The notes beneath the pieces were generated by a model that was not told the origin of the DNA, did no database searches, and worked only from the letters and a program-made list of their open reading frames with translations. Made by a program: the position numbers and the translations under genes. Of a stretch of 64,000 bases of DNA, positions 7,738 through 59,555 are shown piece by piece; the stretch's first letter is position 1, and the number at the start of each line of letters is the position of its first letter. The stretch is from Acidobacteriota bacterium (lineage in GTDB: Bacteria; Acidobacteriota; Terriglobia; Versatilivoradales; Versatilivoraceae), in the NCBI GenBank assembly GCA_022821775.1, contig JAJECY010000247.1, forward strand, positions 2,368 through 66,367. Reading direction: 5' to 3'.

Positions 7738-10404
7738 ATGAGAAGGCGATCGATGCCGGCCATAAAGCCAATGCGAACGAAGACCCTTCCGGCTCTGGCC
7801 CTGATTGTCTGGCTCCTGACCCCGGCTACAGCCGGCCTCGCCCAGGACAAGCCGTCGCTGTATGAGTCCGTGCAGGCCGTCCTGGCCGAGAACTGTCTGA
7901 GCTGCCACGGGGCCGCCCAGATGTCCGGCCTGGACCTGAGGCAGCGGGAAGCCCTCCTGAAGGGAGGCACGCGAGGGCCGGCGGTGGTCCCCGGCAAGGC
8001 CGAAGAAAGCCTCCTGTTTCAGGTCGCGGCCCATATCGGGGAGCTGCGGATGCCTCCCGAGTCGCCCCGCCTGCCCCAGGAGAAGCTGGACCTCATCCGC
8101 CAGTGGATCGATACCGGCGCCGTCTGGGAGGAAAGCGGCGAAGGCGCCGACCCGGCCGCGGCAGAGCCTGAATGGTGGTCGTTCCGCAGGCCGCGGCGGC
8201 CTTCCTTGCCGCTGGTGGACGGCAAGGAGTGGCAGGGGAACCCCATCGATGCCTTCGTGCTGGCCAAGCTGCGCGAGCAAGGCCTGCCGGCGGCGCCTTC
8301 CGCCGACAAGCGGACCTTGATTCGACGCGCCTATTTCGACCTCATCGGCCTCCCCCCTACGCCGGAGCAGGTGGACCGCTTCCTCGAGGACACCTCGCCC
8401 CAAGCCTTTCAGTCGGTGGTGAACGAGTTGCTGGAATCGCCCCACTACGGGGAACGCTGGGGACGGCATTGGCTGGACGTGGTCCGCTACGCCGACTCGG
8501 CCGGGTTCGAGACCGATGCCTTCTTCCCCCACGCCTGGCGCTACCGAGACTACGTCATCAAGTCGTTCAACGAAGACAAGCCCTTCGACCGCTTCCTCCA
8601 GGAGCAGATCGCGGCCGACGAGCTCTGGCCCAACAACCTGGACCTGGAAGGGACCTACGCCATCCGGGTGGAGAAGCTCCGCCAACTGGAGGCCCGGGTG
8701 GGGACAGGACTCTACGGGCTGGTGCCGCAGACGGGTGAATCCAAGATGGACGCCAGCAGGGAGCTCAATGAAATCCTGACCGACTGGGTCGATACCACCG
8801 CCTCGGCATTCATGGGGCTCACGCTGGGCTGCTCACGCTGCCACGACCACAAGTTCGATCCCCTGTCCCAGCAGGACTACTACCGCTTCCAGGCCATCTT
8901 CGCGGCCAGCGACACGGTGGAGATTCCGGTGGTGACCAAGCTTTCCATGTTTCACCGGTCCGAATCCTATTCCGGCTTCCTGACCTTGGCCGAACTCCGC
9001 TGGACGCACCGGCGGCTGGAGCAGAAGGTCAGCCGGCGCGTTTTCGAAGCCAAGAAGGCGGAGTTCCCGCCGGAGGTGGTCGAAGCCTACCGAATCCCGG
9101 ATGACGATCGCACGCCGCAACAGGAAAAGCTGGCCGCCCCGCTGGCCGAGGCCCTGAAGAAGTTGGGCGACCCGAACGGATTGACCCTTCTGGACCTGGA
9201 AAAGCACCTGGCCCCGCAGGAAAAAGTCCAGCGCAAGGAGCTGGTGGAAAAGCTGGGTCAGGCCGTGCTGAAGATTCCGACCACCGAAGCCTCCCACCAG
9301 ACCCACTACGACGCCCTGTTCGACATTCCCAAGGCGGTGGTCATGGGCCACCGGCAGGCGGAGCTGGTTCCGGCGGTCCACGTGCTGGATCGGGGAGACC
9401 TGGGGAAGAACCTGCAGAAGGTGGAACCGGGGCTTCCGCGCATCCTGGCCAACGGAATGGATCTGGGCCGGCCTTCTTCGGACTTCGAGGTTCCCCGATC
9501 CCGGGCCAAGCTGGCCCTTTGGCTGAGCCGCCCCGATCATCCCCTGACGGCGCGGGTGCTGGTCAACCGCCTCTGGCAGTGGCATTTCGGGTCGGGCATC
9601 GTCAGCACACCCAACGACTTCGGGCGGATGGGAGCCGAGCCCACCCATCCGGAACTGCTGGACTGGCTGGCGACCGAGCTGGTGCGCCGGGGCTGGAGCC
9701 TCAAGTCGATGCACCGCCTCATCATGGCCTCGGACGCCTATAAAAGGACTAGCCAGTTTCCCGACCCGGCGGCAGCCGCAGCCGACCCCAGCAATCTCTA
9801 CCTTTGGCGCATGAACCGGCGCCGCCTGGAGGCCGAGGCCCTGTGGGACGCCCTCCATGCCGCCGCCGGAACCCTCAACCGCCAGTTGGGAGGGCGGTCC
9901 TTTTGCCCGACGCCGGAGGAAGGGGACCTCTCGGGCAAGAACTGGGTCCGGGTCTATGCCGACCCCGAGGAGCAGAATCGGCGGGCGGTCTACATCCTGG
10001 TGCAGCGGAACTTCGGATTCCCCATGTTCGAGACCTTCGACACGCCCGATCCGGCCGTGAGCTGCTCGGTGCGCGAAGTCACCACCGTGCCCCCCCAGGC
10101 CCTCTTTTTTCTGAACGACAAGATGGTCTTCGGCCAGGCCCGGGCCTTTGCGGACCGCTTGGTCCGCGAGGTCGGAGACAATCCGTCCGGCTGGATCCGC
10201 CAGGCCTGGCGCGTTGCCCTGGGGCGGGAACCCACCGCCAAGGAGCAGGAAGAGGCCGGGACCCTGCTGGAGTCGCTGACGGAATCGGAGGTCGGAGCCG
10301 GGAAGCCCGACTCGCTGGCCGAGAAGGGCCAGGCCCGCGCCCGGGCTCTCACCCAGTTGTGCCTGGCGGTCTTCAATTTGAGCGAGTTTTCCTACGTGGA
10401 CTGA
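7738..10404 (+). CDS. PSCyt1 (planctomycete cytochrome c) / DUF1549 / DUF1553 domain protein
   Basis: Signal peptide, CxxCH haem motif (LAENCLSCHG), and the characteristic DUF1549 (HYGERWGRHWLDVVRYADS) and DUF1553 regions. Followed 60 nt downstream by a DUF1501 gene, the canonical pairing. Confidence 0.9.
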   Translation: MRRRSMPAIKPMRTKTLPALALIVWLLTPATAGLAQDKPSLYESVQAVLAENCLSCHGAAQMSGLDLRQREALLKGGTRGPAVVPGKAEESLLFQVAAHIGELRMPPESPRLPQEKLDLIRQWIDTGAVWEESGEGADPAAAEPEWWSFRRPRRPSLPLVDGKEWQGNPIDAFVLAKLREQGLPAAPSADKRTLIRRAYFDLIGLPPTPEQVDRFLEDTSPQAFQSVVNELLESPHYGERWGRHWLDVVRYADSAGFETDAFFPHAWRYRDYVIKSFNEDKPFDRFLQEQIAADELWPNNLDLEGTYAIRVEKLRQLEARVGTGLYGLVPQTGESKMDASRELNEILTDWVDTTASAFMGLTLGCSRCHDHKFDPLSQQDYYRFQAIFAASDTVEIPVVTKLSMFHRSESYSGFLTLAELRWTHRRLEQKVSRRVFEAKKAEFPPEVVEAYRIPDDDRTPQQEKLAAPLAEALKKLGDPNGLTLLDLEKHLAPQEKVQRKELVEKLGQAVLKIPTTEASHQTHYDALFDIPKAVVMGHRQAELVPAVHVLDRGDLGKNLQKVEPGLPRILANGMDLGRPSSDFEVPRSRAKLALWLSRPDHPLTARVLVNRLWQWHFGSGIVSTPNDFGRMGAEPTHPELLDWLATELVRRGWSLKSMHRLIMASDAYKRTSQFPDPAAAAADPSNLYLWRMNRRRLEAEALWDALHAAAGTLNRQLGGRSFCPTPEEGDLSGKNWVRVYADPEEQNRRAVYILVQRNFGFPMFETFDTPDPAVSCSVREVTTVPPQALFFLNDKMVFGQARAFADRLVREVGDNPSGWIRQAWRVALGREPTAKEQEEAGTLLESLTESEVGAGKPDSLAEKGQARARALTQLCLAVFNLSEFSYVD

Positions 10405-10464
10405 GAGTCCTTGTTAAACCCGGCCTAGGGCTGGTACCATCTCGGGTACAAGGAGCCAATTTCA

Positions 10465-11910
10465 ATGGATCACACCTGCTGCCACCGGCAAATGACCGCC
10501 AGGTCCCGGAGGGAGTTTCTCACCACCTCCGGATTCGGCTTCGGCGGCCTGGCCCTGGGCTACCTGCTGAATCGCGAGCACGCCCTGGCCAACGTGGTGC
10601 CGCCCACCACCGTCAATCCATTGGCCCGCCGGACGCCGCACTTCCCGGCCAAGGGCAAGAGTGTCATCTGTCTGTATATGAAGGGCGGCCCCAGCCAGAT
10701 GGACAGCTTCGACCCCAAGCCCCTGCTCAGCCGGCTCGACGGTCAGCCCATCCCGCCCAGCTTCGTCACCAAGGACCTGGACCTGCAGTTCGTCAAGGTC
10801 GAGGACATGAAGCTGCTGGGATCCCGGCGGACCTTCCGGAAATATGGGCAGTCCGGCCTGGAGATCTCCGACCTTTTCAGCCGGGTGGGTCAACACGCCG
10901 ACGACTTGGCCGTAATCCGCTCCTGCTACCACGACTCCTTCATCCACGGGCCCGCCATGAGCGTCATGCTGACGGGATCGGTCCGGCTGGGTCATCCCAG
11001 CGTGGGAGCCTGGGTGGTCTACGGCCTGGGCAGCGAGACCGAGAACCTGCCGGCCTACGTGGCCATGTCGGAGGGAGCCGGCGTCTCCACCAAGGCGGTC
11101 TATGGAGCCGGGTTCCTTCCCGCAGCCTACCAGGGCACCTTCATGCGGACCGAGGGGAATCCCCTGCGGAACCTGACGCCCCCCATCGATCCCGGCAACC
11201 AGCGAAAGATCCTGGACCAGGTGGGCCGCTGGAACCAGCGGCACCTGGACCAGCGGCGGCAGGACGACTCTCGCCTGGCCGCCCGCCTGACCAACTACGA
11301 GCTGGCTTTTCGCATGCAGACGGCAGCCCCCGAGCTGATCGACATCTCCGGCGAACCGGAGCACGTCCGGCAGATGTACGGCCTGAATTCCGAAAACACG
11401 GCCAAGTTCGGGCGAATGTGCCTGCTGGCGCGGCGGATGGTGGAGCGGGGAGTCCGTTTCATTCAGCTCTACAAGAGCGGCTGGGACGGACATACCGAGA
11501 ACGATCAGCTCCACGTGGGCAGCGCCGCCAAGATCGACCAGCCCATTGCCGGCCTGATCGCCGACCTGAAGCAGCGGGGCCTGCTGGACAGCACCCTGCT
11601 GGTCTGGACAGGCGAGTTCGGCCGCACTCCCATCAACCAGGGAAAGATGGGCCGGGACCATAACCCCTACGGCTTCACCACCTGGATGGCCGGGGGCGGC
11701 ATCCGCGGCGGCAAGGCCATCGGTGCCACCGACGAGCTGGGCTTCCGGGCCGTCGAGGACCGGGTGCACGTCCACGACCTGCATGCCACCATCCTTTCAC
11801 TGCTGGGTCTGGACCACGAGAAGCTGACCTACTTCTTCGAAGGCCGCAACCGCCGCCTGACCGACGTCGGCGGACAGAACGACCTGTCGGGCAAACTGGT
11901 GGCCGGCTGA
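10465..11910 (+). CDS. DUF1501 domain protein (sulfatase-like, TAT signal)
   Basis: SRREFLTTSGFGFGGLAL twin-arginine signal. Conserved DUF1501 blocks (YMKGGPSQMDSFDPKP, WTGEFGRTP, GRDHNPYGFT). AAGGAG lies 9 nt upstream of ATG 10465. Confidence 0.9.
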   Translation: MDHTCCHRQMTARSRREFLTTSGFGFGGLALGYLLNREHALANVVPPTTVNPLARRTPHFPAKGKSVICLYMKGGPSQMDSFDPKPLLSRLDGQPIPPSFVTKDLDLQFVKVEDMKLLGSRRTFRKYGQSGLEISDLFSRVGQHADDLAVIRSCYHDSFIHGPAMSVMLTGSVRLGHPSVGAWVVYGLGSETENLPAYVAMSEGAGVSTKAVYGAGFLPAAYQGTFMRTEGNPLRNLTPPIDPGNQRKILDQVGRWNQRHLDQRRQDDSRLAARLTNYELAFRMQTAAPELIDISGEPEHVRQMYGLNSENTAKFGRMCLLARRMVERGVRFIQLYKSGWDGHTENDQLHVGSAAKIDQPIAGLIADLKQRGLLDSTLLVWTGEFGRTPINQGKMGRDHNPYGFTTWMAGGGIRGGKAIGATDELGFRAVEDRVHVHDLHATILSLLGLDHEKLTYFFEGRNRRLTDVGGQNDLSGKLVAG

Positions 11911-12065
11911 ACCGGGCGCCGGACCGGGTCGAAGTCCAACCAGGCGCCTTCCACCCGTTGCTCCCGCCGCCACGGCCTCTTTCCCCCTTCCGACTGAGAT
12001 CCCGGACGATGTCTTCATGTGATAGGGAGGGGCTCTTGGATATTGCCCTTCCCGAGGCTGCCGCA

Positions 12066-12581
12066 ATGCTGATGCTGACGCTGGTCTTCCTTCTCTTCAT
12101 CTTTCCCCTGGGCGCCGCGGCTCAGGAGGCCACGCCGACCTACAAGGGAAGCCTTCGCCTGCCGCTGGAGCTGCAGACCCCGCAGGGTCAACGCCTGGCA
12201 AAGGGGAAAGTGGACCTGGAGGTACGGCTGGAGCAAAAGGCCTGGCTGCTGTTTTCCCGGGGGGAGCAGGCCTTGGCCCGGGTGGAGGGTAAGGTTCTGG
12301 AAGGCGACGCCCCGGACCCGCCGGGCGCGGTTCCCCTGGTGGGCACCGTATTCCTGCAGTCCTCCGCCGTACCCATCCGCAGTGACTTCGACCGGCGCTA
12401 CAGCAAAACCGGAAAGCCGCAATACCGGGAAGAGAGCTACGACTGGAGAGGCACCCTCAGGGTGCACCGCCCGCCGAACCCGCGTGGCCGGGAGGTCTAC
12501 TTCATCTTTCACGAACGGGGCCAGAATGAAAACCACCGGCGCATCCAGTTCACCCTGCTTCGAGCGGGAAATGTGGAGTGA
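12066..12581 (+). CDS. hypothetical secreted protein
   Basis: Internal ATG 12066 gives MLMLTLVFLLFIFPLGAAAQ signal peptide. No recognisable domain. Confidence 0.4.
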   Translation: MLMLTLVFLLFIFPLGAAAQEATPTYKGSLRLPLELQTPQGQRLAKGKVDLEVRLEQKAWLLFSRGEQALARVEGKVLEGDAPDPPGAVPLVGTVFLQSSAVPIRSDFDRRYSKTGKPQYREESYDWRGTLRVHRPPNPRGREVYFIFHERGQNENHRRIQFTLLRAGNVE

Positions 12582-12620
12582 GGATTGCAGGCGAGGAGTG
12601 GGTATGGGCGGAGCAGCCAG

Positions 12621-12995
12621 CTAACCGCGCTCTTCAATCTCGAATACGACGATAATTCCGCGTTTGCCCTGCGCCAGGCCGATACGCAGCGAGTCCATTC
12701 GACCGAGTGACCACACCGCACGAAAGTCCTTCTTCAATGTGCCGGGGTCAAGCCTGTCTCCGGGCCCGGTCTCGATCTTCGAGCCGATAAGCTCCTTCAA
12801 AGGCTTGGGATCGCCGGCAAAGGTCCCGCAGATCTCGATACTCTGGACCACCATCTCGTCCGGCGGATCGCCCGGCTCGAGGTTTGGTCCAGACGGACAC
12901 GGCTCCGATACCGGGGTCGAGGCTACGGCCGTCAAGAGGAACAGGGGAGACAACAGGACAGCAACGAGGCTTTTTCCAAGCAGGAATCGGACCAT
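12621..12995 (-). CDS. hypothetical small secreted protein
   Basis: 124-aa ORF with N-terminal signal peptide (MVRFLLGKSLVAVLLSPLFLLTAVAS). The C-terminal part is weakly POTRA-like. Low certainty. Confidence 0.4.
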   Translation of the reverse strand: MVRFLLGKSLVAVLLSPLFLLTAVASTPVSEPCPSGPNLEPGDPPDEMVVQSIEICGTFAGDPKPLKELIGSKIETGPGDRLDPGTLKKDFRAVWSLGRMDSLRIGLAQGKRGIIVVFEIEERG

Positions 12996-13087
12996 CGTGG
13001 GAGCTCCTTCAAATCAAGGAACAAGCACAGCCAGGGGGATTGGGCGTTAGGTTCTTGAGCCTTTTGCAAAATTCGTCGTCGAGCGCT

Positions 13088-13203
13088 GGGGACGTTGTTG
13101 AATTACTGGAATAACTTCGATCCACCGCTGCTGAATGATTTTGATTCAATGACGTCTCCTACGCGCTCTTTACAAGTTATTCCAGTAATTCAACAACGTC
13201 CCC
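13088..13203. repeat. perfect 30-bp AT-rich inverted repeat with a 56-bp spacer (MITE-like / long hairpin element)
   Basis: 13088-13117 GGGGACGTTGTTGAATTACTGGAATAACTT is the exact reverse complement of 13174-13203. Sits in an AT-rich intergenic region between two minus-strand genes. Confidence 0.8.
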
Positions 13204-13351
13204 TATCCACAAGGTGTTCCGAAGGCTCAAAATCGACCCCAAGAAAGGTGTCGCCATAAACCAGACAGGTTGATTCTGCGTAAGCTCCCTTTTTACAATC
13301 CATTACGCTTATTTTGCTCGTGAAGTTCCGTTTAAGGCAAGTCCATTTTCA

Positions 13352-14656
13352 TCATTCCGCACCTAGGTCAAAGGCCACGATCTTTTTTCTGCTGCGGACG
13401 TAGAGCGTGTCTCCAACCAGGGAGGGCACCGTCCAGCAGTTGTACTTCAGCGGCTGAGCCTGGGCCAGGATTTCGATTCCCTTTTTGCCGGGCACGGCCA
13501 GGGCCAGGGTGCCGTCCTCATCCAGGATGATGAACTTGCCGTCGGCGTAGAGCAGGGTCCCCTTGGCGAATCCCCGATGGCGCCAGGCCACTTCGCCGTC
13601 GGAGACCCGGATGGCGGTGAGAAAGGCCGGTCCGAAGTCGCCGCTGAAGCCGTAGGCCATCCCGTCCAGGCGAACGACGTTGCCGTGGTGCACCCGCATC
13701 CGCTTGGTGAACCACAGCTCCTCCACCGAGGTCTTGCCGTTGCGGCGGCTGAGCTCGAGGGCACGACTCCCCCCCTTGTAGGCCGTGGAGAGGAACAGGC
13801 GGTTGTCCGCTCCCCAGGCCGGGGTGCTGACCGTCAGGCCTCCGGCCAGGCCGTGGGTGTGGCTCCAGAGCAGGTCTCCGGTCTCGGGATCCACCCCGAC
13901 CACCTCCTCCTCCATCATGCCCACAAACTGATCCTGTCCGTCGACGTTGATCAGGATGGGCGAGGAATGGGAGCGCTTGAAGTCGTGCCGGGTCCAGACC
14001 ACCCGGCCGTCCGCGGCGTTGAAGGCCATCAGGCCGTGACCGGGCCCTCCCACCAGGCAGAGGACCAGGTCTCTGTAGGCAATGGGACTGGAAGAAAACC
14101 CTCGGCTCAAGGGGGTGCTTCTGAAATCCCCGGCCAGCTCGTACGACCAGAGAACCTCCCCGGTGTCCTTCTTCAGGCAGTGCAGGGTGCCGTTCCAGCC
14201 GATGGTCACCAGCCCTTCCCGGGTCAGCAGGGGGGTCGCCTGGGGTCCGACGCCATACTTGCGGTGGGTGTTGTCCAGCTCCCTCATGATGGGCGCCGGA
14301 TAGCGGTGCTGCCATAGAGTGCGGCCGCTTGCAGGCTCCAGGGCGACCACCACTTCGTCCTCTTCCTGCCGGTACAGGGTGTAGAGTCGTTTCCCGTCAG
14401 CCAGGATCCCCGCATAGCCGTCCCCCACCTCGCGGCTCCAAAGCTGAGGTGGCCCCTCGGAGGACCACGAGGTCGAAAGACCGGCTGTCCGGACCTTGAA
14501 GTCCCCGCCGGGTCCGCCCCAACCTGGCCATCCCCGGGAGGGGTGGATGCCGCAGCCGGAGGTCCACAGCAGCGCGCAGGCAGCGGTCCAGGCCAACAGG
14601 TTCGGAAATCTGCAGCGGGCGGCAGAGGGTCTTTCTGCCTGTCGGGGTCGTATCAT
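13352..14656 (-). CDS. PQQ-like beta-propeller repeat protein (BamB-like fold), probable lipoprotein
   Basis: The track ORF 13352..15001 is trimmed to the internal ATG at 14656 (MIRPRQAERPSAARCRFPNLLAWTAACALLWTSGC). Repeated PQQ-type blades (DGxVLWS..., DGRVVWT..., DGEVAWR...). Confidence 0.7.
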   Translation of the reverse strand: MIRPRQAERPSAARCRFPNLLAWTAACALLWTSGCGIHPSRGWPGWGGPGGDFKVRTAGLSTSWSSEGPPQLWSREVGDGYAGILADGKRLYTLYRQEEDEVVVALEPASGRTLWQHRYPAPIMRELDNTHRKYGVGPQATPLLTREGLVTIGWNGTLHCLKKDTGEVLWSYELAGDFRSTPLSRGFSSSPIAYRDLVLCLVGGPGHGLMAFNAADGRVVWTRHDFKRSHSSPILINVDGQDQFVGMMEEEVVGVDPETGDLLWSHTHGLAGGLTVSTPAWGADNRLFLSTAYKGGSRALELSRRNGKTSVEELWFTKRMRVHHGNVVRLDGMAYGFSGDFGPAFLTAIRVSDGEVAWRHRGFAKGTLLYADGKFIILDEDGTLALAVPGKKGIEILAQAQPLKYNCWTVPSLVGDTLYVRSRKKIVAFDLGAE

Positions 14657-25240: not shown

Positions 25241-26344
25241 TTGATCGATTGGACTCAAATCGGCGAGTTCGCGACTCGCTATGCGGGTGCAGGCGCCAAA
25301 ATCGCCGGCCTGTTTCTGATGGCCTGGATCGCCTCTCGCATGATTCATCGCTACATCCCCAGGGTGCGCATGCGGCTGGTCAAAGTCATGCAGGCCCGCC
25401 GGCACGAGCCCGATCTCGAACTGGACAAACGGGCGGCCACGCTGGGGGGCATTTTCCGCAAGACGGTAGTGGTGTCGATCTGGGTGGTGGTTCTCATGAT
25501 GGCGCTGGAGGAAGCCGGCTTCAACGTGGGGCCGTTGCTGGCTGGCGCCGGGGTGGCGGGGCTGGCCGTCGGCTTCGGGGCTCAAAACCTGGTGCGGGAC
25601 GTGATTTCGGGACTGTTCATGCTGCTCGAGAACCAGGTCCGGGTCAACGACGTGGCCATCATCAACGGCACCGGGGGCCTGGTGGAGCAGATCAACCTGA
25701 GGACCACCGTGCTGCGAAGCCTGGACGGCACCGTTCACATCTTTCCCAACGGCACCATCAACACCTTGTCCAACATGACGCAAGAATACTCCTACTACGT
25801 CTTTAACATCGGCGTGGCCTACAAGGAGGATACCGACCATGTCTCGGCGGTGGTCAAGGAGCTGGCCGACGAAATGATGCAGGAGGAAACCTATCGATCG
25901 TTCATTCTGGCCCCGCTGGAAGTGATGGGGGTGGATGAGTTTGCCGACTCGGCCGTCATGATCAAGGCCCGCATCAGGACCGCGCCCATCAAGCAGTGGA
26001 TGGTGGGCCGGGAGATGAATCGCCGCATCAAGAAGAGGTTCGACGAGCTGGGCATCGAGATTCCCTTCCCCCACCGCTCACTCTACTTCGGCGAGGCCAG
26101 CAAGGCCTTCGCCACCCGCTCGGCCGGCGCCGATCCCGGCGAGATCAAGGCCATGATCCGCGAAGTGCTGCAGGAAAAGGGCTTGCAGTCCGGCGAGGTA
26201 GAGCCTCCAGCTCCGACAAGGGTGACTCCTGCCGCCCCGAAGCCGAAAGCTCGCCCGCAGCCGGCCAAGCCCGCCGCCGAACGACGCCCGCGCCGGCCGG
26301 CTCCCCTGGGAGAAAGCACGGCTGACTCCGAGGGTTACGAATGA
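25241..26344 (+). CDS. mechanosensitive ion channel (MscS) family protein
   Basis: TM helices plus a conserved MscS beta domain (NLVRDVISGLFMLLENQVRVNDVAI...VHIFPNGTI), with a low-complexity Pro/Ala/Lys C-terminal tail. Confidence 0.85.
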   Translation: MIDWTQIGEFATRYAGAGAKIAGLFLMAWIASRMIHRYIPRVRMRLVKVMQARRHEPDLELDKRAATLGGIFRKTVVVSIWVVVLMMALEEAGFNVGPLLAGAGVAGLAVGFGAQNLVRDVISGLFMLLENQVRVNDVAIINGTGGLVEQINLRTTVLRSLDGTVHIFPNGTINTLSNMTQEYSYYVFNIGVAYKEDTDHVSAVVKELADEMMQEETYRSFILAPLEVMGVDEFADSAVMIKARIRTAPIKQWMVGREMNRRIKKRFDELGIEIPFPHRSLYFGEASKAFATRSAGADPGEIKAMIREVLQEKGLQSGEVEPPAPTRVTPAAPKPKARPQPAKPAAERRPRRPAPLGESTADSEGYE

Positions 26345-27528
26345 TGGACGGCCAGCCCACAAACCGGGTAGTAACATTGGCCGACCGACCGAACTCATGC
26401 CTGTCCGCTTCAGGACTGCGGAGCCGTATTACCCACTCTTTGCGCAAACAAGGATTCCGGTTCCGATCGGGCGTTCTTGTCCCCCCAGATATCAAGGATA
26501 AGAGCAAGCTCAGGGTGCTTCATCGGGAAGCCGTCAAGCACAACGTGAGTCGCAGCCGACGTGGGCTCGAACGGTGCGAAGACCGGCTGCTTTCGTATAT
26601 CGCGTCTGGAGAAGACGTCATTCCCGACAGAATACGCCCCCGACTCGTCTTGGTACAGCCAGGCTCCGAGGACGAACTGCTGTTCCGGTACGCACGCCTG
26701 CACTGGAGCATCCCGGTGTCCGCCGGCTACGGTAGACGCTTGAGATTCGTAGTCTATGACGAATCGAATGGCAAATTGATCGGCATCTTCGGATTGGGAG
26801 ACCCCATCTTCGGCCTTGGCCCCCGCGACCGATGGATAGGATGGAGTCACAAAGCCAAGAAGAATCGGCTACAGTGCGTCATGGACCTCTTTGTGCTGGG
26901 AGCCATACCGCCCTATTCCCATCTTCTTTGCGGTAAGCTCGTCGCTCTGTTGGCGACTAGCCGAACCGTCCGGGAGGCGTTTCGACGCAAATATGGCGGC
27001 CGGCCTTCATATATCGGCCGCAAGCCATTGGACGGTCGCCTTGCCCTACTGACCACAACCTCTGCACTTGGTCGATCATCCTTGTACAACCGACTCCGAT
27101 ACAAGGATGATCTTGTCTTTCAAAGTGCGGGCTTCACACGCGGTTCGGGGGATTTTCACTTCAGCAATGGTTTTTTTGGCGACCTACGTCAGTTTGCGCT
27201 CAAACATTGCAATGCAACGGCTAAGCATACGCTGTGGGGTAAGGGTTTCCGAAATCGACGGGAGCTTGTGAGAAAGACGTTGCCACTGCTAGGTCTCCCG
27301 AAGGAGTTTCTATATCACGGTGTAAAGCGCGAAATATTCTTGGCACCGCTGGCCTCCAACACCGCAGCCTTTCTTTGCGGTGACGACCAACGACTCCAAT
27401 ACCGTGACCTTACCGAGGAAGACGTTTTCAGATGGTTCCGGGACCGATGGCTCCTGCCGCGAGCGGAACGTGACAAGAGCTACTTGGGCTTCGATTCTAA
27501 GGATTACCGGCTCTGGAGGTCGGAGTGA
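26341..27528 (+). CDS. uncharacterised 395-aa protein, first gene of the low-GC NurA/HerA island
   Basis: No motif I can assign. The start ATG overlaps the MscS stop (ATGA at 26341-26344). The stop overlaps the GTG start of the next gene (GTGA at 27525-27528). GC is lower than the flanks. Confidence 0.6.
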   Translation: MMDGQPTNRVVTLADRPNSCLSASGLRSRITHSLRKQGFRFRSGVLVPPDIKDKSKLRVLHREAVKHNVSRSRRGLERCEDRLLSYIASGEDVIPDRIRPRLVLVQPGSEDELLFRYARLHWSIPVSAGYGRRLRFVVYDESNGKLIGIFGLGDPIFGLGPRDRWIGWSHKAKKNRLQCVMDLFVLGAIPPYSHLLCGKLVALLATSRTVREAFRRKYGGRPSYIGRKPLDGRLALLTTTSALGRSSLYNRLRYKDDLVFQSAGFTRGSGDFHFSNGFFGDLRQFALKHCNATAKHTLWGKGFRNRRELVRKTLPLLGLPKEFLYHGVKREIFLAPLASNTAAFLCGDDQRLQYRDLTEEDVFRWFRDRWLLPRAERDKSYLGFDSKDYRLWRSE

Positions 27529-28214
27529 CTCAGAGGCCTTTGACTCACGATCAAACTCCATTCGCCGATCTCCCTGCAGCACTGGTTGACGAGGTCCTGG
27601 GTCAGACCTCCGCCGTCGCACAGGATCTTCTGACCTCTTTCAAAGAGGTCAGGAAGGATCGTGAAACACTTCGTGCCGAGCTTGCGAACTCCGGCTTGGT
27701 AGTAGCCGAATCCTCGCTGGGTTACCCGCCTCTGCCAACGACGTGCGGTGCGGACGGTTCGTATGCGATTGAGCGACTTCTGACGACGGATCTCGCTGCC
27801 GCAGCAGCGGTTGCAGTCGAGGGACTCACTCCCCCTTCTGAAAAGCGACACTGGGAGCTTCCCCGTCATCGGAGCTTCGTTGCCGCCGAGCCCCACGTCG
27901 AAGACACAGCCACCGTCCTTCGCGCGGTAATGCTGGGAGAAGAGTTGCACTTGGTGACGGCTGCCCCGCATGACCTATTGATGCTGGACGGTACGTTCAC
28001 CCTGCCAATCATTTATTTCAATCAGGCGCTCAACAAAGCCCCTGAAACTACCCAGCTACGCTGCGCCAAGAAGTTCCTCGATAACTGTTCGACCTACCTC
28101 GAAGCCTACCGGACCACCTTACAATCGGAACGTTCGGATAAGCACTTCGTGGCGCTTCCGAAGTATTCGACCCGGCGGGAAATCGGCAGTGAATTGGGTT
28201 GGCCCGAGAACTAA
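27525..28214 (+). CDS. nurA: NurA-like 5'-3' nuclease, N-terminal part (ends at an in-frame TAA)
   Basis: NurA motifs are present: GADGS (the DGS aspartate motif), then LGEELHL...LMLDGTF (Glu + second Asp-Gly motif). Ends at TAA 28212-28214. The reading frame continues in-frame into the next ORF. Confidence 0.6.
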   Translation: MTQRPLTHDQTPFADLPAALVDEVLGQTSAVAQDLLTSFKEVRKDRETLRAELANSGLVVAESSLGYPPLPTTCGADGSYAIERLLTTDLAAAAAVAVEGLTPPSEKRHWELPRHRSFVAAEPHVEDTATVLRAVMLGEELHLVTAAPHDLLMLDGTFTLPIIYFNQALNKAPETTQLRCAKKFLDNCSTYLEAYRTTLQSERSDKHFVALPKYSTRREIGSELGWPEN

Positions 28215-28226
28215 GACGACCGTGGG

Positions 28227-28703
28227 ATGCTCACCATGCTTCTGAACCCCGGCGAATTGACAAAACCACGACTACTGGAACACCCACGGGACAGCGAGGG
28301 GAATACCACTTGGCACCTGAATACGCAGCGACTGCCCGACAAGTCGAAGCGCCAGGCTGCCGAGCTGGCGTCTGAGATTGTCTCGGCACTCGGGGACCTT
28401 CGAGTCTTCTACTACAAGCCCCAGGACTGGCTACCTGCACTTAGGATCGAAGTTTCCGCTAGCGTTGCCTCAAATGCTCACCGCTTGGCGACGGTGGTAC
28501 ATGGCATCAAGCACCAGACGGCTACCCCATCGATGCTGGAGCCCTATCCGATCTACCTTGCCGATCGCACCGTAAAGGCACTCGCACGAGCGATTCCTGC
28601 TTTCAGGCAGGTGACGACTCAACGAATTTCGGAGCAGTACGAAGGGGACATCGGCGAGGTGTTCTTCGCAATGCACGGTTATCGCAGCGAGATCGGGAGA
28701 TGA
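28227..28703 (+). CDS. nurA: NurA-like nuclease, C-terminal part (same frame as 27525..28214)
   Basis: Contains the NurA C-terminal-type motif EPYPIYLADRTVKALARA. Same frame (frame 0) as the upstream fragment, separated by one TAA plus 4 codons. The stop overlaps the HerA start (ATGA at 28700-28703). Confidence 0.55.
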   Translation: MLTMLLNPGELTKPRLLEHPRDSEGNTTWHLNTQRLPDKSKRQAAELASEIVSALGDLRVFYYKPQDWLPALRIEVSASVASNAHRLATVVHGIKHQTATPSMLEPYPIYLADRTVKALARAIPAFRQVTTQRISEQYEGDIGEVFFAMHGYRSEIGR

Positions 28704-30487
28704 CAATGACTGACGATTCAGCAACGAATCTAGACAGGCTCATCGATCAGACTGAGCGGTTGGGTGTCGTCGGCTCACCTTCGTCTACTGCCCAGCTTGC
28801 ACTCGACATTCTCGGTTCCGCCGTCACCCGCAAGCTGGTCGGGGAACTCGCGCTCTTCCGCTTCTTGCAGGACACGAGTCCACACTATGCGCTCGGTCAG
28901 ATTACAGAAATTCAACTCCGCAATATCTGGCACGAAGACCCCACCATGCGCAGCCTTATCCGACAGCGCGGCCGGGTCGACGCCGTGAGTGAGCGTCAAG
29001 ATACCCACCTCGGCCAGATGATTATCAGCGCGGTCTTCCAAGAAGGAGGTTCAGCGGGCTACGAACCGAGCATCCTTGGAACCGTGCCGTCAACTGGAAC
29101 CCGAATCCATCTCGTGACGGATCCGGTGCTCGATGAACTGCTCCGTCCGTATCGGGAGCAGATCTTTTATCTTGGACACGTGTACGGCTCCAAGCCGAAG
29201 CTGCCGCTCTGGTTTAAACACTTCGACAAGGGACCGGACGGCGCCGGCGAAGCCTATCACCTCGGTATCTTCGGCAAGACTGGCTCGGGCAAGTCGGTTC
29301 TGGCCAAGATGATCCTTTTGGCCTATGCCCGATATACCAAGATGGCTCTCCTAGTGATTGATCCACAGGGAGAGTTTGCAAAAGATATGAAATCGAACGC
29401 ACCAAGCGGCGAGTTTCGACTTCCCTTAAAGGATCTCATCCGGTCTCAGGGCAAGAAAGCACACGTTCTAACTGTTCGAAAACTCGTTCTTGATCGATGG
29501 GACTTGTTCCGACAGATCCTCGCGGAGTCGAAGTTCTTTCGAGAACTTCAGGTAATGACTCAAGACAAAGTCGAAACTGCATGTGATCAGTTCACTGAAG
29601 CAATGCGAAAAACATCGGGAATCAAGCTTGCCACGCTGCATGAATCAGATGTTTTCAAGAAGGCATGGAAACTTCTTACACAGGATAAGCTTCGTAACAA
29701 GATTTATGCGCGGGAGGGAGCTGCCGCGGAACGTTTCAGAGATGCTGTAAACGAAGCTAATCCGGATGAAATTTATCAAGGCATCTGGTTGCCTGTAGCG
29801 CGGCTGTTTCAAGAGGACCGCGAAGCTGGACGCCGCAAAGTGGAGGATGCCCTCAGGTGGTTGCTGAAATTCAAAGAACATACCAATCGGCCCGTTCTTG
29901 TCGTCGATGTTTCCAAGGAGCAAGCACAAGGGCTACTTTGGAATGACACGATTCAGTCGCTGGTCATCAAACGTCTTCTGGAAGGTGTCACCCACATTGC
30001 TGAAGATATGTACCGGGAAGGAGAGAGTCTCAACGCCCTGGTCGTCATCGACGAAGCCCACCGCTTGGCCCCGGGGCCTCGTGATCTATCGCGGGACGAC
30101 GATGCGGCACGCGGCGTGCGCTCAGTGTTGATCGACGCGGCCCGGACGACGCGAAAGTATGGACTGGGCTGGCTCTTCATCAGCCAGACGCTCTCGAGCC
30201 TGCACCCGGAGATCCTCCAGCAGCTCCGTATCTTCTTCTTCGGCTTCGGACTTGGACTCGGACAAGAGTTCCAGTCGCTTCGGCAGCTTGTGGGCTCCTC
30301 TGGTACGGCACTCGACTTGTATCAATTGTTTCGCGATCCACACTCAGCTTTCGATCCCAGGAGCCGACAATACTCCTTCATGACCATTGGGCCGGTGAGT
30401 CCGTTATCATTTTCCGGAAGCCCGCTCTTTCTGAATGCTTTCAACACGGTAGACGCCTTCTTGAATGCGAACGAACTTGGCAGGTGA
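28700..30487 (+). CDS. herA: HerA-like / DUF87-type P-loop ATPase (FtsK-HerA superfamily translocase)
   Basis: Walker A GIFGKTGSGKS and Walker B ALVVIDEAHRLAP. Size about 595 aa. Immediately downstream of and translationally coupled to the NurA fragments. Lowest GC in the window. Confidence 0.8.
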   Translation: MTMTDDSATNLDRLIDQTERLGVVGSPSSTAQLALDILGSAVTRKLVGELALFRFLQDTSPHYALGQITEIQLRNIWHEDPTMRSLIRQRGRVDAVSERQDTHLGQMIISAVFQEGGSAGYEPSILGTVPSTGTRIHLVTDPVLDELLRPYREQIFYLGHVYGSKPKLPLWFKHFDKGPDGAGEAYHLGIFGKTGSGKSVLAKMILLAYARYTKMALLVIDPQGEFAKDMKSNAPSGEFRLPLKDLIRSQGKKAHVLTVRKLVLDRWDLFRQILAESKFFRELQVMTQDKVETACDQFTEAMRKTSGIKLATLHESDVFKKAWKLLTQDKLRNKIYAREGAAAERFRDAVNEANPDEIYQGIWLPVARLFQEDREAGRRKVEDALRWLLKFKEHTNRPVLVVDVSKEQAQGLLWNDTIQSLVIKRLLEGVTHIAEDMYREGESLNALVVIDEAHRLAPGPRDLSRDDDAARGVRSVLIDAARTTRKYGLGWLFISQTLSSLHPEILQQLRIFFFGFGLGLGQEFQSLRQLVGSSGTALDLYQLFRDPHSAFDPRSRQYSFMTIGPVSPLSFSGSPLFLNAFNTVDAFLNANELGR

Positions 30488-30615
30488 CAAAATGGGTGCA
30501 GTCGTTTGTTCCCAGGGACAAAGAAACCGGGGGGACGAGTATAGGACGTTGTTGAATAGCCGGAAAAACATCCTCGACTTCCGGTTTTGGAGGCACTTGG
30601 GTTTAGAGGCGACCA

Positions 30616-32352
30616 ATGACCTATAGCGAAGCAGAAATCAGGGTTCAACTCAGCCTCGGCGAGGACAGCCGTTGGGAATTCAAGCAAGTCGAATTCGCCG
30701 GCAACTACCCAAGGAATCCGAGGCGGGACGATTTGGCGGATGAGATCGCAGCCTTCGCCAATGCGGATGGCGGTATGCTGCTCTGCGGCGTCACAGACGC
30801 AGGCGAGGTGCAGGGCATGTCTCGTGAGCAGATTGTCGAATTGGATTCTGTTCTGGTCGAGGTGAGTTCTGACGCCATCAAACCAGCCGTTCGCATCCGC
30901 ACCCATCACAGGCACCTCGATGGCAAGCGGTTGCTACTGGTTGAAGTGCCGGCCGGCGAATCGCTGTACGAAAGCCCAGGGGGAAGCTATGTTCGGGTGG
31001 GTGGCACAAAGCGAAAGATGAACAGCGACGAGCAGCTTCGCTTGGCCCAACGAAGAGGACAGGCGCGTTTCCGCTCGTTCGACGAGCAACCCCTCCCAAG
31101 TACCGGATTCAGAACTCTGGACGAATCGCTCTGGAAGCCGCTGTTAACGGCCGAAGGTGCGGTACATCCCGAGTCGGCGCTCGGGAAGCTGGCGCTCCTG
31201 GCGCCCGACCAGGCGGGAATTCCGCGCTCGACGGTAGCCGGCGTGTTGTTGTGCACCCGAAATCCCGAGCAGCACCTCCCCAACGCGTGTATCACGGCGA
31301 CCCGATACCGGGGAAAGGATCGAGCTTCCGGCCAGATCGATGCACAGGAGATCACCGGCCCGCTAGACCGCCAGATCGCCTCCGCAGTGGCCTTCGCCAT
31401 AAGGAACATGCACGTTGCTGCACGCAAGGAGCCGGCCCGCGTGGACCTGCCCCAGTACAGCGACAAGGCACTGTTCGAGGCCATCGTCAATGCCGTGGCG
31501 CATCGCGACTATTCGATGCATGCCAGCAAGATTCGCCTCTCCATGTTCGAAGACCGCCTGGAAATTCAGTCGCCTGGCTCGCTGCCAAACAACTTGACCG
31601 TCGACAGCATGGCAACGCGGCAAGCAACTCGCAACCAGGCCTTGACCTCGGTGCTGGGACGAATGCACGTCGGGGGCGTCCAAGGCTCGGAGGACAGGCA
31701 GTATTTCATGGAGCGGCGCGGAGACGGAGTTCCCATTATCCTGCGCGAAACCAAGCAACTCAGCGGCAAACTGCCGGAATATCGCCTGATCGATGCTTCG
31801 GAAGTCTGCCTGATCATCCCTGCGGCAGTGCAGGAGCGGAGCCCTGCCCGGACTGTCATCACCGTGCGGTCCGGCGGCCAACCCTTGCCTGGCGCCGACC
31901 TGTTGGCTCTTTTTTCGAACAATACCTGGAAGCGCGCGACCACGGACGAGTCCGGGGAGGCGGCCGTCGACCTGCACACGACGCATCTCCCCATGAGGGT
32001 GTTCGCTGCCGCTCCCGGCTACGCTGCACACCTGGAACGTGATTGGGTCCCCAGCAGTCGAGCGCTCACGATAGAAGTCAAGGAACTGCAGGACGGTGGC
32101 AGTGTCATCTTTCCCGAGGCGACGGGATGCCTTCCAGGCCTCAAGGGCAGGCTCAATCCCATACGCGACACCCATGACCGAACCTATCTCTACGCGTCCA
32201 ACGTTGCCATCAACGAGGGCGAGCAGCAACCGGTCTACTTCATCCCCGGTGAAGACCTGCGGTTAACCGATGCCGACGGAACCGCGCTGCTCGTGCGCAT
32301 TGTCGATATCGCAGGCCGCTCGACTCTTTTGGAATATCGTCCATACTCCTGA
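30616..32352 (+). CDS. AlbA_2 (Schlafen-like DNA-binding) + HATPase_c_4 domain protein with extra C-terminal domain
   Basis: N-terminus: RWEFKQVEF...ADEIAAFANADGGMLLCGVTDAGEVQGM (AlbA_2-type). Middle: ALFEAIVNAVAHRDYSMHASKIRLSMFEDRLEIQSPGSLP (HATPase_c_4-type). About 200 aa of unassigned, more GC-rich C-terminal sequence. Confidence 0.75.
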   Translation: MTYSEAEIRVQLSLGEDSRWEFKQVEFAGNYPRNPRRDDLADEIAAFANADGGMLLCGVTDAGEVQGMSREQIVELDSVLVEVSSDAIKPAVRIRTHHRHLDGKRLLLVEVPAGESLYESPGGSYVRVGGTKRKMNSDEQLRLAQRRGQARFRSFDEQPLPSTGFRTLDESLWKPLLTAEGAVHPESALGKLALLAPDQAGIPRSTVAGVLLCTRNPEQHLPNACITATRYRGKDRASGQIDAQEITGPLDRQIASAVAFAIRNMHVAARKEPARVDLPQYSDKALFEAIVNAVAHRDYSMHASKIRLSMFEDRLEIQSPGSLPNNLTVDSMATRQATRNQALTSVLGRMHVGGVQGSEDRQYFMERRGDGVPIILRETKQLSGKLPEYRLIDASEVCLIIPAAVQERSPARTVITVRSGGQPLPGADLLALFSNNTWKRATTDESGEAAVDLHTTHLPMRVFAAAPGYAAHLERDWVPSSRALTIEVKELQDGGSVIFPEATGCLPGLKGRLNPIRDTHDRTYLYASNVAINEGEQQPVYFIPGEDLRLTDADGTALLVRIVDIAGRSTLLEYRPYS

Positions 32353-33476
32353 TGTCACGATTGGAAAACATCCTGAAGCAGAAGGTGAGGGAGGGCGAGC
32401 TCTGGGAGCGGCTGGATGAGAAACGCATCCGCTGCACCGCCTGCGGGCACTGTTGTCCCATTCCCGAGGGCCGCCCGGGCGTCTGCCGGGTTCGCTTCAA
32501 CCGGGGCGGCAAGTTGATGGTTCCCTGGGGCTACACCGGAGGGGTGCAGTGCGACCCCATCGAAAAGAAGCCCTTCTTTCATGCCTACCCCGGAGCGCTG
32601 GCCTACAGCTTCGGCATGCTGGGCTGCGACCTGCACTGCGCCTACTGTCAGAACTGGGTGACCTCCCAGGCCTTGCGAGACCCGGCGGCAGTGGCGCCCG
32701 CTCGCAGGACCACCCCCCAGGCCTTGGCCCGGGCGGCGGTGAGGCAGCGGGCGCGGGTGATCGTGAGCACCTACAACGAGCCGCTGATCACCAGCGAGTG
32801 GGCGGTGGCGGTGTTCCGGGAGGCCCGCAAGGAGGGCCTGGTCACCGGGTTCGTCTCCAACGGCAACGGCACTCCGGAGGTGCTGGAATACCTCAACCCC
32901 TGGGTGGACCTCTACAAGGTGGATCTGAAGAGTTTCCGCGATCGCCAGTACCGCAGATTGGGGGGACGGCTGCAGCCGATCCTGGAGACCATTCGCAGCC
33001 TGTTCCGACAAGGGTTCTGGCTCGAGATCGTGACGCTGCTGATTCCGGGATTCAACGATTCAGAAGATGAAGTCCGGCGGCTGGCGGCCTTCCTGGCGGG
33101 CGTGTCTCCCGACATTCCCTGGCACGTGACCGCCTTTCACCAGGACTACAAGATGACCGATCCCGACAATACCAGCGCCGAGATGCTGACGGCGGCGGCC
33201 GAGATCGGCCGGCAGGAGGGATTGCGCTACGTCTATGCCGGCAACCGGCCGGGCCGGGTGGGGGACCTGGAGAACACCCGCTGCCCGGATTGCCAAGCCC
33301 TGCTGATCGAGCGCTTCGGCTACCTGATTATGGGGTACCACCTGACTCCCCAGGGGGACTGTCCAAGCTGCGGTCTGGCCATTCCCGGGCGCTGGGCCCA
33401 ATCCTTCCAGGGCCAGGTGGCCGCCCATCCCTTCCTGCCCCGACAGGGGATCAACCCGCCAACGGTTTCTTCCTGA
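32352..33476 (+). CDS. AmmeMemoRadiSam-system-type radical SAM enzyme (AmrS-like)
   Basis: N-terminal Cys cluster CTACGHCCPIPEGRPGVCRVR, then a radical-SAM CDLHCAYCQNW (CxxxCxxC) motif. Collinear with AmrS-type proteins. Confidence 0.82.
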   Translation: MSRLENILKQKVREGELWERLDEKRIRCTACGHCCPIPEGRPGVCRVRFNRGGKLMVPWGYTGGVQCDPIEKKPFFHAYPGALAYSFGMLGCDLHCAYCQNWVTSQALRDPAAVAPARRTTPQALARAAVRQRARVIVSTYNEPLITSEWAVAVFREARKEGLVTGFVSNGNGTPEVLEYLNPWVDLYKVDLKSFRDRQYRRLGGRLQPILETIRSLFRQGFWLEIVTLLIPGFNDSEDEVRRLAAFLAGVSPDIPWHVTAFHQDYKMTDPDNTSAEMLTAAAEIGRQEGLRYVYAGNRPGRVGDLENTRCPDCQALLIERFGYLIMGYHLTPQGDCPSCGLAIPGRWAQSFQGQVAAHPFLPRQGINPPTVSS

Positions 33477-57937: not shown

Positions 57938-58804
57938 ATTGGCCAACTTCCAGATGTATCCTCTAGTACATCGAGAGATTGCACGACTGAAGAGCATTTG
58001 ATTCCCGCTTGCCTTGGCGGCAAACTCTCTGCGAAGTTCCTCTGCAAAAACTGCAACTCAACGTTGGGGCACCGCGAGGAAAGTCGTGTCCGTAAAGACC
58101 CGATGATTGTCGCAGGGATTGAGCGTCTGGCCAGAAAGCGCCTGGACTTGGCCGATGGCTTGCGGAAGCGGTTGTCGTACACCGGCCACAGCCAACGAGG
58201 CGAGGTCCGTGGCTTTATGCGAAGTGGAGAGTTCATTGTGAGCGAACAACCTCAGGACGATGGATCGCTTATCGTGCAAGAGGACAAGGCACTGGAGGTT
58301 GTAAAAACCATAGCCGTGCGCAAAGGTATGGGGTCATTGATCCATGGCGCTGACGATTTGAGCCACCTATCGCCCGGCGAATCGGTTGAATTCGCCCCCG
58401 GAATCTGGATTACGAAGTGGGCTGTGGACTCAGTTGAACCCGATCTCAGCGGACTGGAGATTGATGCGGTTGTTCCAGCAAAGATTGCATTCGAGTTTCT
58501 TGCACTACATTGCGGCGATGACATTTACGGGGACTCCCCGCAGATCAAGTCAATTCGGCGCCAGCTTCTTGCCGGTGAACTGTCCGAAAATAATGTCAAC
58601 GTGGAGCGTCTGATGGCACAGAACAATCGTCTGTTCCATGGTCTGGTCTTTGAGGGAAACAACCCGGGAGCGTGCGTTCAGATTAGGCTCTTCGGACGCC
58701 TAGCCTTCCGCGTACAGTTTCGCTGCTTTGCTATTCGTTGCACTCGTGTGAGTTATACTCACGACCTGCTGTCTGGAGATGATGACCTACACGCTGTCTC
58801 ATAG
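57938..58804 (+). pseudogene. HNH-endonuclease-motif protein with degenerate N-terminus (no ATG/GTG start; low GC)
   Basis: After the stop at 57935-57937, the frame reads ...SRDCTTEEHLIPACLGGKLSAKFLCKNCNSTLGH. This matches the HNH core (EH-LIP-x3-GG-x6-LCxxCN-x3-G) but has only one upstream Cys. The only start candidate is TTG at 57998, which lies inside the motif. Region GC is well below the flanks. Confidence 0.4.
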
Positions 58805-58956
58805 GACAAAACCTTCGAACAGATCTTCCCCGGTGACCTGTTGAAACGTGCCCCTTACGAGATCGAGTGCGTTGGAATAGGCACTTTCAATACAACGCCG
58901 GTTGCCTGGCCAAGAAGAATGGATCCTTAAAACAGCATCGGATGCAGGAGGCAGAA

Positions 58957-59193
58957 ATGGATTCTGAACTCATTCAATCGGACCCCTCAGTCATGATGGG
59001 GAAGCCCGTCGTCGCAGGCACACGCATTACCGTCGAGTTGATTCTGGAAAAACTCTCTGCAGGGGAAACAGTCGACCAAATCCTAGAGGCTCATCCCCGT
59101 TTGACTCGGGAAGGCATTTTGGCAGCCTTGAATTTTGCCGCTCGAGCTCTGCGCGCCGATGTTGTGTATCCTACCGTTGAGCAAAGTCCATGA
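58957..59193 (+). CDS. DUF433 domain protein (antitoxin-like partner of DUF5615)
   Basis: GKPVVAGTRITVELILEKLSAGETVDQILEAHPRLTREGILAALNFA matches DUF433. AGGAGG lies 5 nt upstream of ATG 58957. The stop overlaps the next start (ATGA 59190-59193). Confidence 0.75.
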   Translation: MDSELIQSDPSVMMGKPVVAGTRITVELILEKLSAGETVDQILEAHPRLTREGILAALNFAARALRADVVYPTVEQSP

Positions 59194-59555
59194 ACCTGCT
59201 GGCAGACGAAAGTGTGGATAAACCCATCGTTGACCGCTTGCGGCAGGATAGCCACACCGTGAAATACATTGCGGAAGTGCACCCCAGTATCGATGACGAT
59301 ACCGTGCTGCATCAAGCGAACCAGAACAACGCCTTGCTGATTACGTCGGATAAAGACTTCGGCGAGCTTATTTTTCGTATGGGACAGATCCACTCGGGCG
59401 TTGTGCTCGTGCGTTTAACGGGGCGATCCGCGGAAATAAAAGCACGGGTCGTATCGACTGTAATTGCCGACCGAGGCCACGAACTGCTCTCTTCTTTCAC
59501 GGTCATTTCACCAGGAAGAGTACGGATTCGCCACCGAGCAAACCAACCTGACTGA
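59190..59555 (+). CDS. DUF5615 (PIN-like) putative toxin
   Basis: MNLLADESVDKPIVDRLRQDSHTV...ALLITSDKDFGELIFRMGQIHSGVVLVRL matches the DUF5615 pattern. Coupled to the DUF433 gene. Confidence 0.75.
   Translation: MNLLADESVDKPIVDRLRQDSHTVKYIAEVHPSIDDDTVLHQANQNNALLITSDKDFGELIFRMGQIHSGVVLVRLTGRSAEIKARVVSTVIADRGHELLSSFTVISPGRVRIRHRANQPD

Follow-up and report, generated by a model that had tools for sequence, protein, structure and literature searches.

Does a block of low guanine-plus-cytosine (G+C) content in an acidobacterial genome encode a defence system, and which of its genes belong to that system? The block lies in a stretch of 64,000 nucleotides (nt) from an Acidobacteriota bacterium (Terriglobia; Versatilivoraceae; assembly GCA_022821775.1, contig JAJECY010000247.1, positions 2,368–66,367, forward strand), the whole of which we refer to as the window. 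A first-pass annotation had described the block as a gap-free, horizontally acquired five-gene module, comprising a lead gene of no assignable family, a NurA nuclease split over two reading frames, a HerA translocase and a protein with AlbA_2 and HATPase_c_4 domains. We compared it with loci from other genomes, contigs and plasmids (L001–L030), among them the chromosome of a sister genome, Ca. Versatilivorator (Acidobacteriota; L005). The true unit consists of three genes, druA-nurA-herA (26341–30487), and the best reading is that they form an unnamed HerA-type defence system built from familiar parts.

Six open reading frames (ORFs) follow one another on the plus strand (26341–27528, 27525–28214, 28227–28703, 28700–30487, 30616–32352 and 32352–33476). 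Their junctions are as first described, with ATGA at 26341–26344, GTGA at 27525–27528, an in-frame TAA at 28212–28214, ATGA at 28700–28703 and, at 32352, an overlap of 1 nt. The block does contain a gap, as a spacer separates herA from the AlbA_2 gene. The features of the three-gene cassette are:

26341–27528, plus strand: druA, encoding a DruA/DUF4338 protein of 395 amino acids (aa); the preceding MscS gene ends in an overlap with its start codon.
27525–28703, plus strand: nurA, a single NurA-family nuclease gene of 392 codons, interrupted by a nonsense codon.
27525–28214 and 28227–28703, plus strand: the two ORF fragments of nurA (229 and 158 aa).
28212–28214, plus strand: the nonsense codon TAA, in frame inside the NurA domain (codon 230); Tyr in orthologs.
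28700–30487, plus strand: herA, encoding a HerA/FtsK-superfamily ATPase of 595 aa; its start overlaps the nurA stop (ATGA).
29501–29938, plus strand: the dimorphic insert of HerA, residues 268–413, between Walker A and Walker B.
30488–30615, plus strand: spacer 3' of herA, 128 nt, with a hairpin followed by a T run; end of the cassette.

The evidence for a three-gene unit comes from its linkage elsewhere. Metagenomes were scanned with the NurA profile and neighbours were scored in 80 loci, counting only those where the contig leaves room. DruA lies directly upstream of NurA in 59 of 59 such loci and HerA directly downstream in 59 of 59, the whole triad being present in all 49 loci with room on both sides. 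Every long contig examined carries DruA (~384 aa), then an intact NurA-like gene of 391–393 codons, then HerA of 586–593 codons, with stops and starts that overlap or nearly abut. druA-nurA-herA is an obligate unit, encoded on one strand, in which start codons overlap stop codons; the neighbourhood conservation that the first-pass annotation proposed to look for holds for these genes and does not extend to AlbA_2. A scan of one genome per species (185,579 species), which detects close relatives only, returned 13 loci. The triad occurs in 11 genome loci belonging to Gammaproteobacteria, Binatia, Latescibacterota, Gemmatimonadota, Chloroflexota, Deinococcaceae and Terriglobia, at least seven phyla, at identities to the window of 64–79% (DruA), 73–90% (NurA) and 72–87% (HerA). 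Between loci, DNA similarity starts near 26415 and ends at about the herA stop (~30480).

The lead gene can be assigned with ease, matching Pfam DruA/DUF4338 (PF14236) at E 4e-109 and 364.7 bits (cutoff 27) over profile positions 3–297 of 297, and the PADLOC DruA model at positions 16–381 of 407. Its product shares 37.5% identity, across 92% of its length, with DruA from the canonical DruABCDE operon of P. putida pKF715A; the motifs GA(V/I)PPY...LLxGK, SxxYxR and GxTxGxG are invariant between window-type and canonical DruA. A sequence search of the PDB with the DruA profile gave nothing useful, and fold comparison alone was informative: it revealed a GNAT-like core (approximately residues 100–340) preceded by a short N-terminal helical/beta region. 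The invariant GA(V/I)PPY-x2-L-x2-GK segment falls at the expected beta4-alpha3 position of a GNAT fold, and S246, Y249 and R251 are invariant as well, but the cofactor loop is non-canonical. In its context, DruA is read as a GNAT-fold protein that probably uses acyl-CoA. The AlphaFold models of DruA and NurA were mediocre, built on shallow alignments (members at least 67–78% identical), and no residue-level claims are drawn from them.

Homologs of the window DruA comprise 3,483 database sequences (90%-identity cluster representatives, E ≤1e-5), the best 120 of which come from many phyla at 66–100% identity. The DruA domain is found elsewhere with DruE (Druantia), with large DEAD-box helicases and NERD nucleases, and with FtsK-type translocases on haloarchaeal and Bacteroidota plasmids; a combination with DndF has also been described (PMC10853773). 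On a haloarchaeal plasmid (L022, 7265–17360) and a Hymenobacter plasmid (L023, 8185–18684), DruA-domain proteins, the latter of 1052 aa, cluster with FtsK/SpoIIIE-type translocases, and these clusters may be further combinations of DruA with a motor. A solitary DruA, 67% identical to that of the window and without NurA or HerA, lies between uvrA and uvrB in L027 (9001–10182), where it adjoins Vsr, DUF6339 and a cytosine methylase and is either an orphan or a partner in a different system. No paper on what DruA does in Druantia was found in the literature searched, which is of incomplete coverage, and we know of no account of its role there.

The identity of the second gene as nurA is upheld by profile and fold evidence, and its motifs GADGS, LMLDGTF and EPYPIYLADR are present as first reported. 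The cassette nuclease has the RNase H-like fold and the conserved acidic residues of NurA. Intact orthologs match PF09376 in 34 of 34 cases at E ≤0.01 (best E 3.7e-9), one of them, P0121, with 23.7 bits against a cutoff of 21, whereas the N-terminal fragment of the window alone scores 18.2 bits and falls below that cutoff because the stop cuts the domain. A PDB profile search with NurA returned no sequence-level match to any solved NurA, including those of D. radiodurans and archaea. Database searches at the E-value limit gave 1,442 NurA-like sequences (90%-identity cluster representatives), and the broader NurA-like family comprises 137 clusters at 50% identity (E ≤1e-30); the closest of the DruA and of the NurA-like database sequences belong to the cassette clade.

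The split of NurA is not a design feature. Aligned with L005 (GWPETYDDRG), the window reads GWPEN*DDRG, the TAA standing opposite a Tyr of the intact 392-aa ortholog, so that the two fragments are a single nurA gene with one nonsense codon. Of 79 near-full-length metagenomic nurA copies, 78 contain no internal stop, and the ratio of nonsynonymous to synonymous divergence (dN/dS) from L005 is 0.083, with no sign of long-term decay. Because constraint has not relaxed and nearly all metagenomic copies are intact, this inactivating mutation must be recent. If the assembly is correct, the window copy of the cassette was probably inactivated very recently, since a stop at codon 230 truncates NurA in mid-domain.

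The third gene encodes a HerA-type ATPase, again as first proposed. Walker A (GKTGSGKS, around residues 192–199, within GIFGKTGSGKS) and Walker B (VVIDEAH, around 448–454, within LVVIDEAHR) are both present, and GKTGSGKS and VVIDEAHR are invariant across cassette HerAs. The protein matches the Pfam DUF87/HerA central domain at E 1.9e-11 (44.9 bits, cutoff 23.2) and the PADLOC HerA and mad8 models at E 1e-15 to 1e-16. Its scores against the NCBIfam families HerA_antiphage (16.2 bits, cutoff 800) and HerA_antiphage_2 (21.8 bits, cutoff 850) are far below threshold. The HerA profile retrieved exclusively HerA-type proteins from the PDB, namely 9c1m (1.7e-9), 8wiv (1.1e-8), TdpA (2.6e-7) and 8xau, with weaker matches to the archaeal HerAs of S. 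solfataricus (4d2i, 1.1e-4) and T. kodakarensis (9x1l, 7.7e-4). In the PDB, 9c1m bears the name 'ATP-binding protein' and 8wiv the name 'Helicase HerA central domain-containing protein'; we take the two to be HerA-DUF and SIR2-HerA-type defence complexes.

Between the Walker motifs, HerA carries an insert of ~145 residues that exists in two discrete forms, 42% identical to each other. Among 70 metagenomic loci, 10 have type 1 and 60 have type 2, with no intermediates; the window, L010, L014 and L016 carry type 1, L005 and most others type 2. Nucleotide identity between the window and L005 is 58–61% across the insert and 82–93% in the remaining cassette, and the distribution of the two insert types disagrees with the phylogeny of the remaining cassette. 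Its sequence looks helical, and the insert may be a surface exposed to contact with a partner or a phage inhibitor. DruA and NurA columns were examined for co-variation with the insert type; among 12–13 loci there were zero perfectly partitioned columns, giving no evidence for a specific contact. In one locus (L008, 12923–14132), ~1.2 kb of additional sequence breaks up herA, inserted between alignment residues 214 and 204.

The composition and history of the site indicate horizontal exchange. The G+C content of the first four ORFs is 0.54–0.575 (0.60–0.66 at third codon positions, GC3), lowest in herA, versus ~0.65 (GC3 0.80–0.90) in flanking genes, confirming the low-G+C block, and the cassette lies below its flanks in 13 of 15 hosts. 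The L005 chromosome is collinear with the window over ~18 kb and has a cassette at the same site, the diverged segment running from ~26330 to ~30680. Synonymous divergence (dS) between the two is 0.40 for druA, 0.52 for nurA and 0.81 for herA, 3–8 times that of four flanking genes including AlbA_2 (0.10–0.14), with cassette dN/dS values of 0.04–0.19 denoting purifying selection. Because dS is elevated under purifying selection and between collinear flanks, the data point to different alleles, both functional in appearance, at one conserved site, where the allele was replaced by recombination after the two genomes had diverged, rather than altered by decay. In a more distant Terriglobia genome (L015), the triad directly follows the MscS gene, with different genes to the right; the site has therefore been occupied by the cassette for a long time. 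Synteny of the block in related genomes, which the first-pass annotation had counted against its own proposal, thus exists for the site (L005 and L015), but the block differs from its host in composition and has undergone allele replacement. The cassette moves between phyla, has a lower G+C content than its hosts and is kept under purifying selection, so the claim of horizontal acquisition stands.

In two loci the cassette sequence is disrupted. Within the L015 triad (10014–14052), from a long-read assembly, frameshifts interrupt druA, nurA and herA at several points beside homopolymer runs such as C10; sequencing error, and not real decay, may account for them. On a Vicinamibacterales chromosome (L017, 10001–10278), DruA residues 246–287 are joined almost directly to HerA residues 547–593, and this remnant appears to be a deleted copy of the cassette.

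No named system with this gene set was found in the literature searched or in PADLOC-DB 2.0. The literature contained nothing combining DUF4338/DruA with NurA or HerA, its coverage being incomplete and an earlier description elsewhere possible, and PADLOC-DB 2.0 contains no model for the combination and none for the NurA partner. As in type I Druantia (DruABCDE), the operon opens with a gene for a full-length DruA/DUF4338 protein; unlike Druantia, the cassette lacks DruB, DruC, DruD and the giant DruE (DUF1998) helicase, having NurA and HerA instead. The canonical DruABCDE layout is seen in L019. Because it has no DruE, the defining component, the cassette is not Druantia. In TdpAB (HerA-like TdpA with TdpB; PDB 8wet), TdpB has a fold resembling NurA and works with a HerA-like partner, but the sequence similarity is marginal, which leaves a relationship at the level of fold, and the third component of the cassette is the GNAT-fold DruA; no dnd or tdpC phosphorothioation genes adjoin the cassette in the annotated loci. 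SIR2-HerA and DUF4297-HerA likewise encode a HerA-family ATPase with an effector in a compact operon. In the cassette, however, the effector is NurA, DruA is added as a third gene, HerA is far below the family cutoffs, and neither SIR2 nor DUF4297 domains were matched at the window cassette. By analogy, the mode of action of the cassette would be closest to that of TdpAB or the HerA-effector systems, supplemented by a Druantia component.

We therefore consider it reasonably probable that druA-nurA-herA is a so far unnamed defence against phages or plasmids, belonging to the kind of system in which a HerA motor is combined with an effector. Several observations support this. Elsewhere, DruA is a known part of the anti-phage operon Druantia, and the closest solved relatives of HerA (9c1m, 8wiv and TdpA) rank ahead of the archaeal repair HerAs. 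The linkage of the triad, its horizontal exchange and the defence-type neighbourhoods of some loci add to this, with ParDE, HipA, PIN, N6 methylases and a ResIII helicase in L002–L004 and HsdM, SMODS, SLATT and Mrr in L025. TdpB, with its NurA-like fold, provides a precedent for such a partner of a HerA-like motor. As to mechanism, NurA-HerA complexes are established machines in which a hexamer of HerA pumps duplex DNA into a NurA dimer that does the cutting (PMC3326311, PMC5715905, PMC9960219, PMC12977600), and archaeal HerA-NurA has been argued to destroy both strands and may act against viruses (PMC12977600). From this biochemistry, the cassette HerA would form a hexamer translocating on double-stranded DNA and feed a NurA dimer that degrades it, the triad using this machine as its effector on incoming DNA. 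DruA would most likely supply an upstream step, either sensing the invader or marking or discriminating self; it is placed there because its domain partners with the unrelated DruE and with other translocases.

In turn, NurA-HerA pairs that belong to the same family but are more distant begin with another gene, of HTH (helix-turn-helix) or ImmA type. In two such pairs (L029, 1–4060; L030, 6138–9911), one lead is a divergently transcribed protein with HTH_3 and Peptidase_M78 domains (ImmA/IrrE-like) and the other a 288-aa HTH protein. That the lead gene of distant pairs is a diverged DruA was rejected (hhalign probability 0.2%), and the nuclease-motor core appears to be reused with different first components.

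Some points weigh against a defence role. The proteins are unusually conserved for immune genes (64–90% across phyla), and several cassettes, such as those of L024 and L026, are flanked by ordinary genes of metabolism, further defence genes being absent within 9 kb. The cofactor loop of DruA is non-canonical for a GNAT, with LLCGK in the window and LLGGK in canonical DruA where Q/R-x-x-G-x-G/A is expected, and both the role of DruA and its catalytic competence are putative. The gene set is itself a candidate defence system, and the local copy, with its nonsense codon, gives no indication of function in the source organism.

A more specific version of the defence reading would make DruA an active GNAT-fold modifier, comparable to the Mom protein of phage Mu, a GNAT-fold DNA carbamoylase. 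It would place a mark on self DNA, or else on a factor of the cell or the phage, while NurA-HerA would degrade unmarked DNA, giving a restriction-modification-like system based on acyl transfer. We regard this version, which is argued by analogy, as unlikely.

Outside defence, the alternative that survives best is a DNA repair or recombination module, in which NurA-HerA would resect the ends of double-strand breaks and DruA would be a regulatory acetyltransferase. NurA-HerA is indeed an established end-resection pair, as in archaea and Deinococcus (PMC9960219, PMC3326311). Some cassettes lie among housekeeping genes, and purifying selection is strong. However, no mre11 or rad50 was present beside the cassette in the window or in any annotated locus examined, and the distribution is patchy, as the 13 loci of the one-genome-per-species scan, which detects close relatives only, illustrate. 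Near-identical cassettes in unrelated phyla, the foreign G+C content and the replaced alleles also speak against this module, as does the lack of sequence-level similarity to the NurA of D. radiodurans or archaea, and we know of no repair role for DruA. In contrast to the archaeal and Deinococcus pairs, the cassette has the order druA, nurA, herA and is accessory, patchy, cross-phylum and horizontally exchanged. Lacking Mre11-Rad50 and having an accessory distribution, it is not a canonical repair operon, and a repair function is distinctly unlikely.

Mobile-element machinery, that is, a HerA/FtsK-type DNA pump with a processing nuclease for transfer or maintenance, or a selfish, addiction-like cassette, is very unlikely. 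HerA-superfamily ATPases do drive DNA transfer, Thermus TdtA being an example (PMC5365140), and the cassette has spread between phyla at high identity. HerA gives VirB4/TraC/TrwB-type matches, which are weak, confined to the P-loop region and far below cutoffs. A subset of loci (L001, L002, L007–L009 and L015) shares a conserved leader ~100–300 nt upstream, which in L002 encodes a 101-aa N-terminal fragment of UvrD, and, ~300 nt downstream, a ParD(-ParE) module; these common flanks hint that the ancestral island was larger. Against such machinery, the cassette contains no integrase, relaxase, tRNA, terminal repeats or target duplications. In agreement with the first-pass annotation, no tRNA gene was found in the window, and flanking direct or inverted repeats amounted to short matches at chance level. 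The cassette was found in 1 of 2.9 million viral contigs, at the contig edge, so a phage-borne origin was set aside, and 72,556 plasmids held no close NurA-like match, the single hit having 24.6% identity. The weight not taken by the defence, repair, mobile-element and five-gene readings is left for explanations that were not considered.

The five-gene reading, with a split NurA and the AlbA_2/HATPase_c_4 protein as functional parts, involves the genes next to the cassette:

30616–32352, plus strand: AlbA_2 + HATPase_c_4 gene, 578 aa, adjoining the cassette.
32352–33476, plus strand: AmmeMemoRadiSam-type radical SAM gene, downstream of the AlbA_2 gene.

These genes adjoin one another on one strand in both the window and L005, the composition of the AlbA_2 gene is intermediate (G+C 0.61, GC3 somewhat lowered to 0.72), and AlbA_2/Schlafen-like domains occur in defence contexts (a PADLOC pAgo-associated model matches at E 1.3e-18), but this reading is already contradicted by the comparative data and has next to no probability left, given that an AlbA_2 homolog accompanies the triad in 0 of 80 metagenomic loci and is absent from 12 of 13 genomic loci, and that NurA is a single protein. 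Both domains had been correctly recognized in the 30616–32352 product; its linkage to the cassette is local. The protein is 95% identical to its L005 ortholog, with a flank-like dS of 0.098 versus 0.40–0.81 for the cassette, and is absent from L015. Because of the 128-nt spacer, the flank-like divergence and its absence from the metagenomic loci, the AlbA_2 gene is a neighbour, part of the resident backbone, and looks like a separate, older resident.

The hairpin and T run of the spacer suggest a terminator. The hairpin is not significantly more stable than shuffled sequences (z −1.37), and a promoter and terminator scan gave background level only. Approximately 100 nt of the spacer (30497–30597), hairpin and TTTT included, are missing from the otherwise collinear L005, by insertion or deletion. 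Within ~5 kb of the triad, the window encodes MscS, the AlbA_2 protein, the radical SAM enzyme and a 1496-aa glycosylhydrolase-like protein; no Rfam families were found. A second low-G+C patch at 57998–59555 (0.53–0.56) contains an ORF that weakly matches HNH_5 and, next to it, a DUF433/DUF5615 gene pair (E ~1e-22 each), which looks like a toxin-antitoxin-type module.

The triad is abundant, yet PADLOC-DB 2.0 covers it through the DruA model only, and a tool of this kind would report at most an orphan DruA. The triad couples DruA to the small, biochemically tractable NurA-HerA instead of the 1,800-residue DruE, offering a simpler route to DruA function. If the self-marking version were true, DruA would be a portable discrimination module plugged into unrelated motor-nucleases (DruE or NurA-HerA), its job in Druantia would be revealed, and the two forms of the HerA insert would be alternative interfaces kept by conflict with phage inhibitors. 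If defence is confirmed, druA-nurA-herA would add a third type of effector to those paired with HerA motors and would support NurA-HerA as an immune nuclease, an idea raised for archaeal HerA-NurA (PMC12977600).

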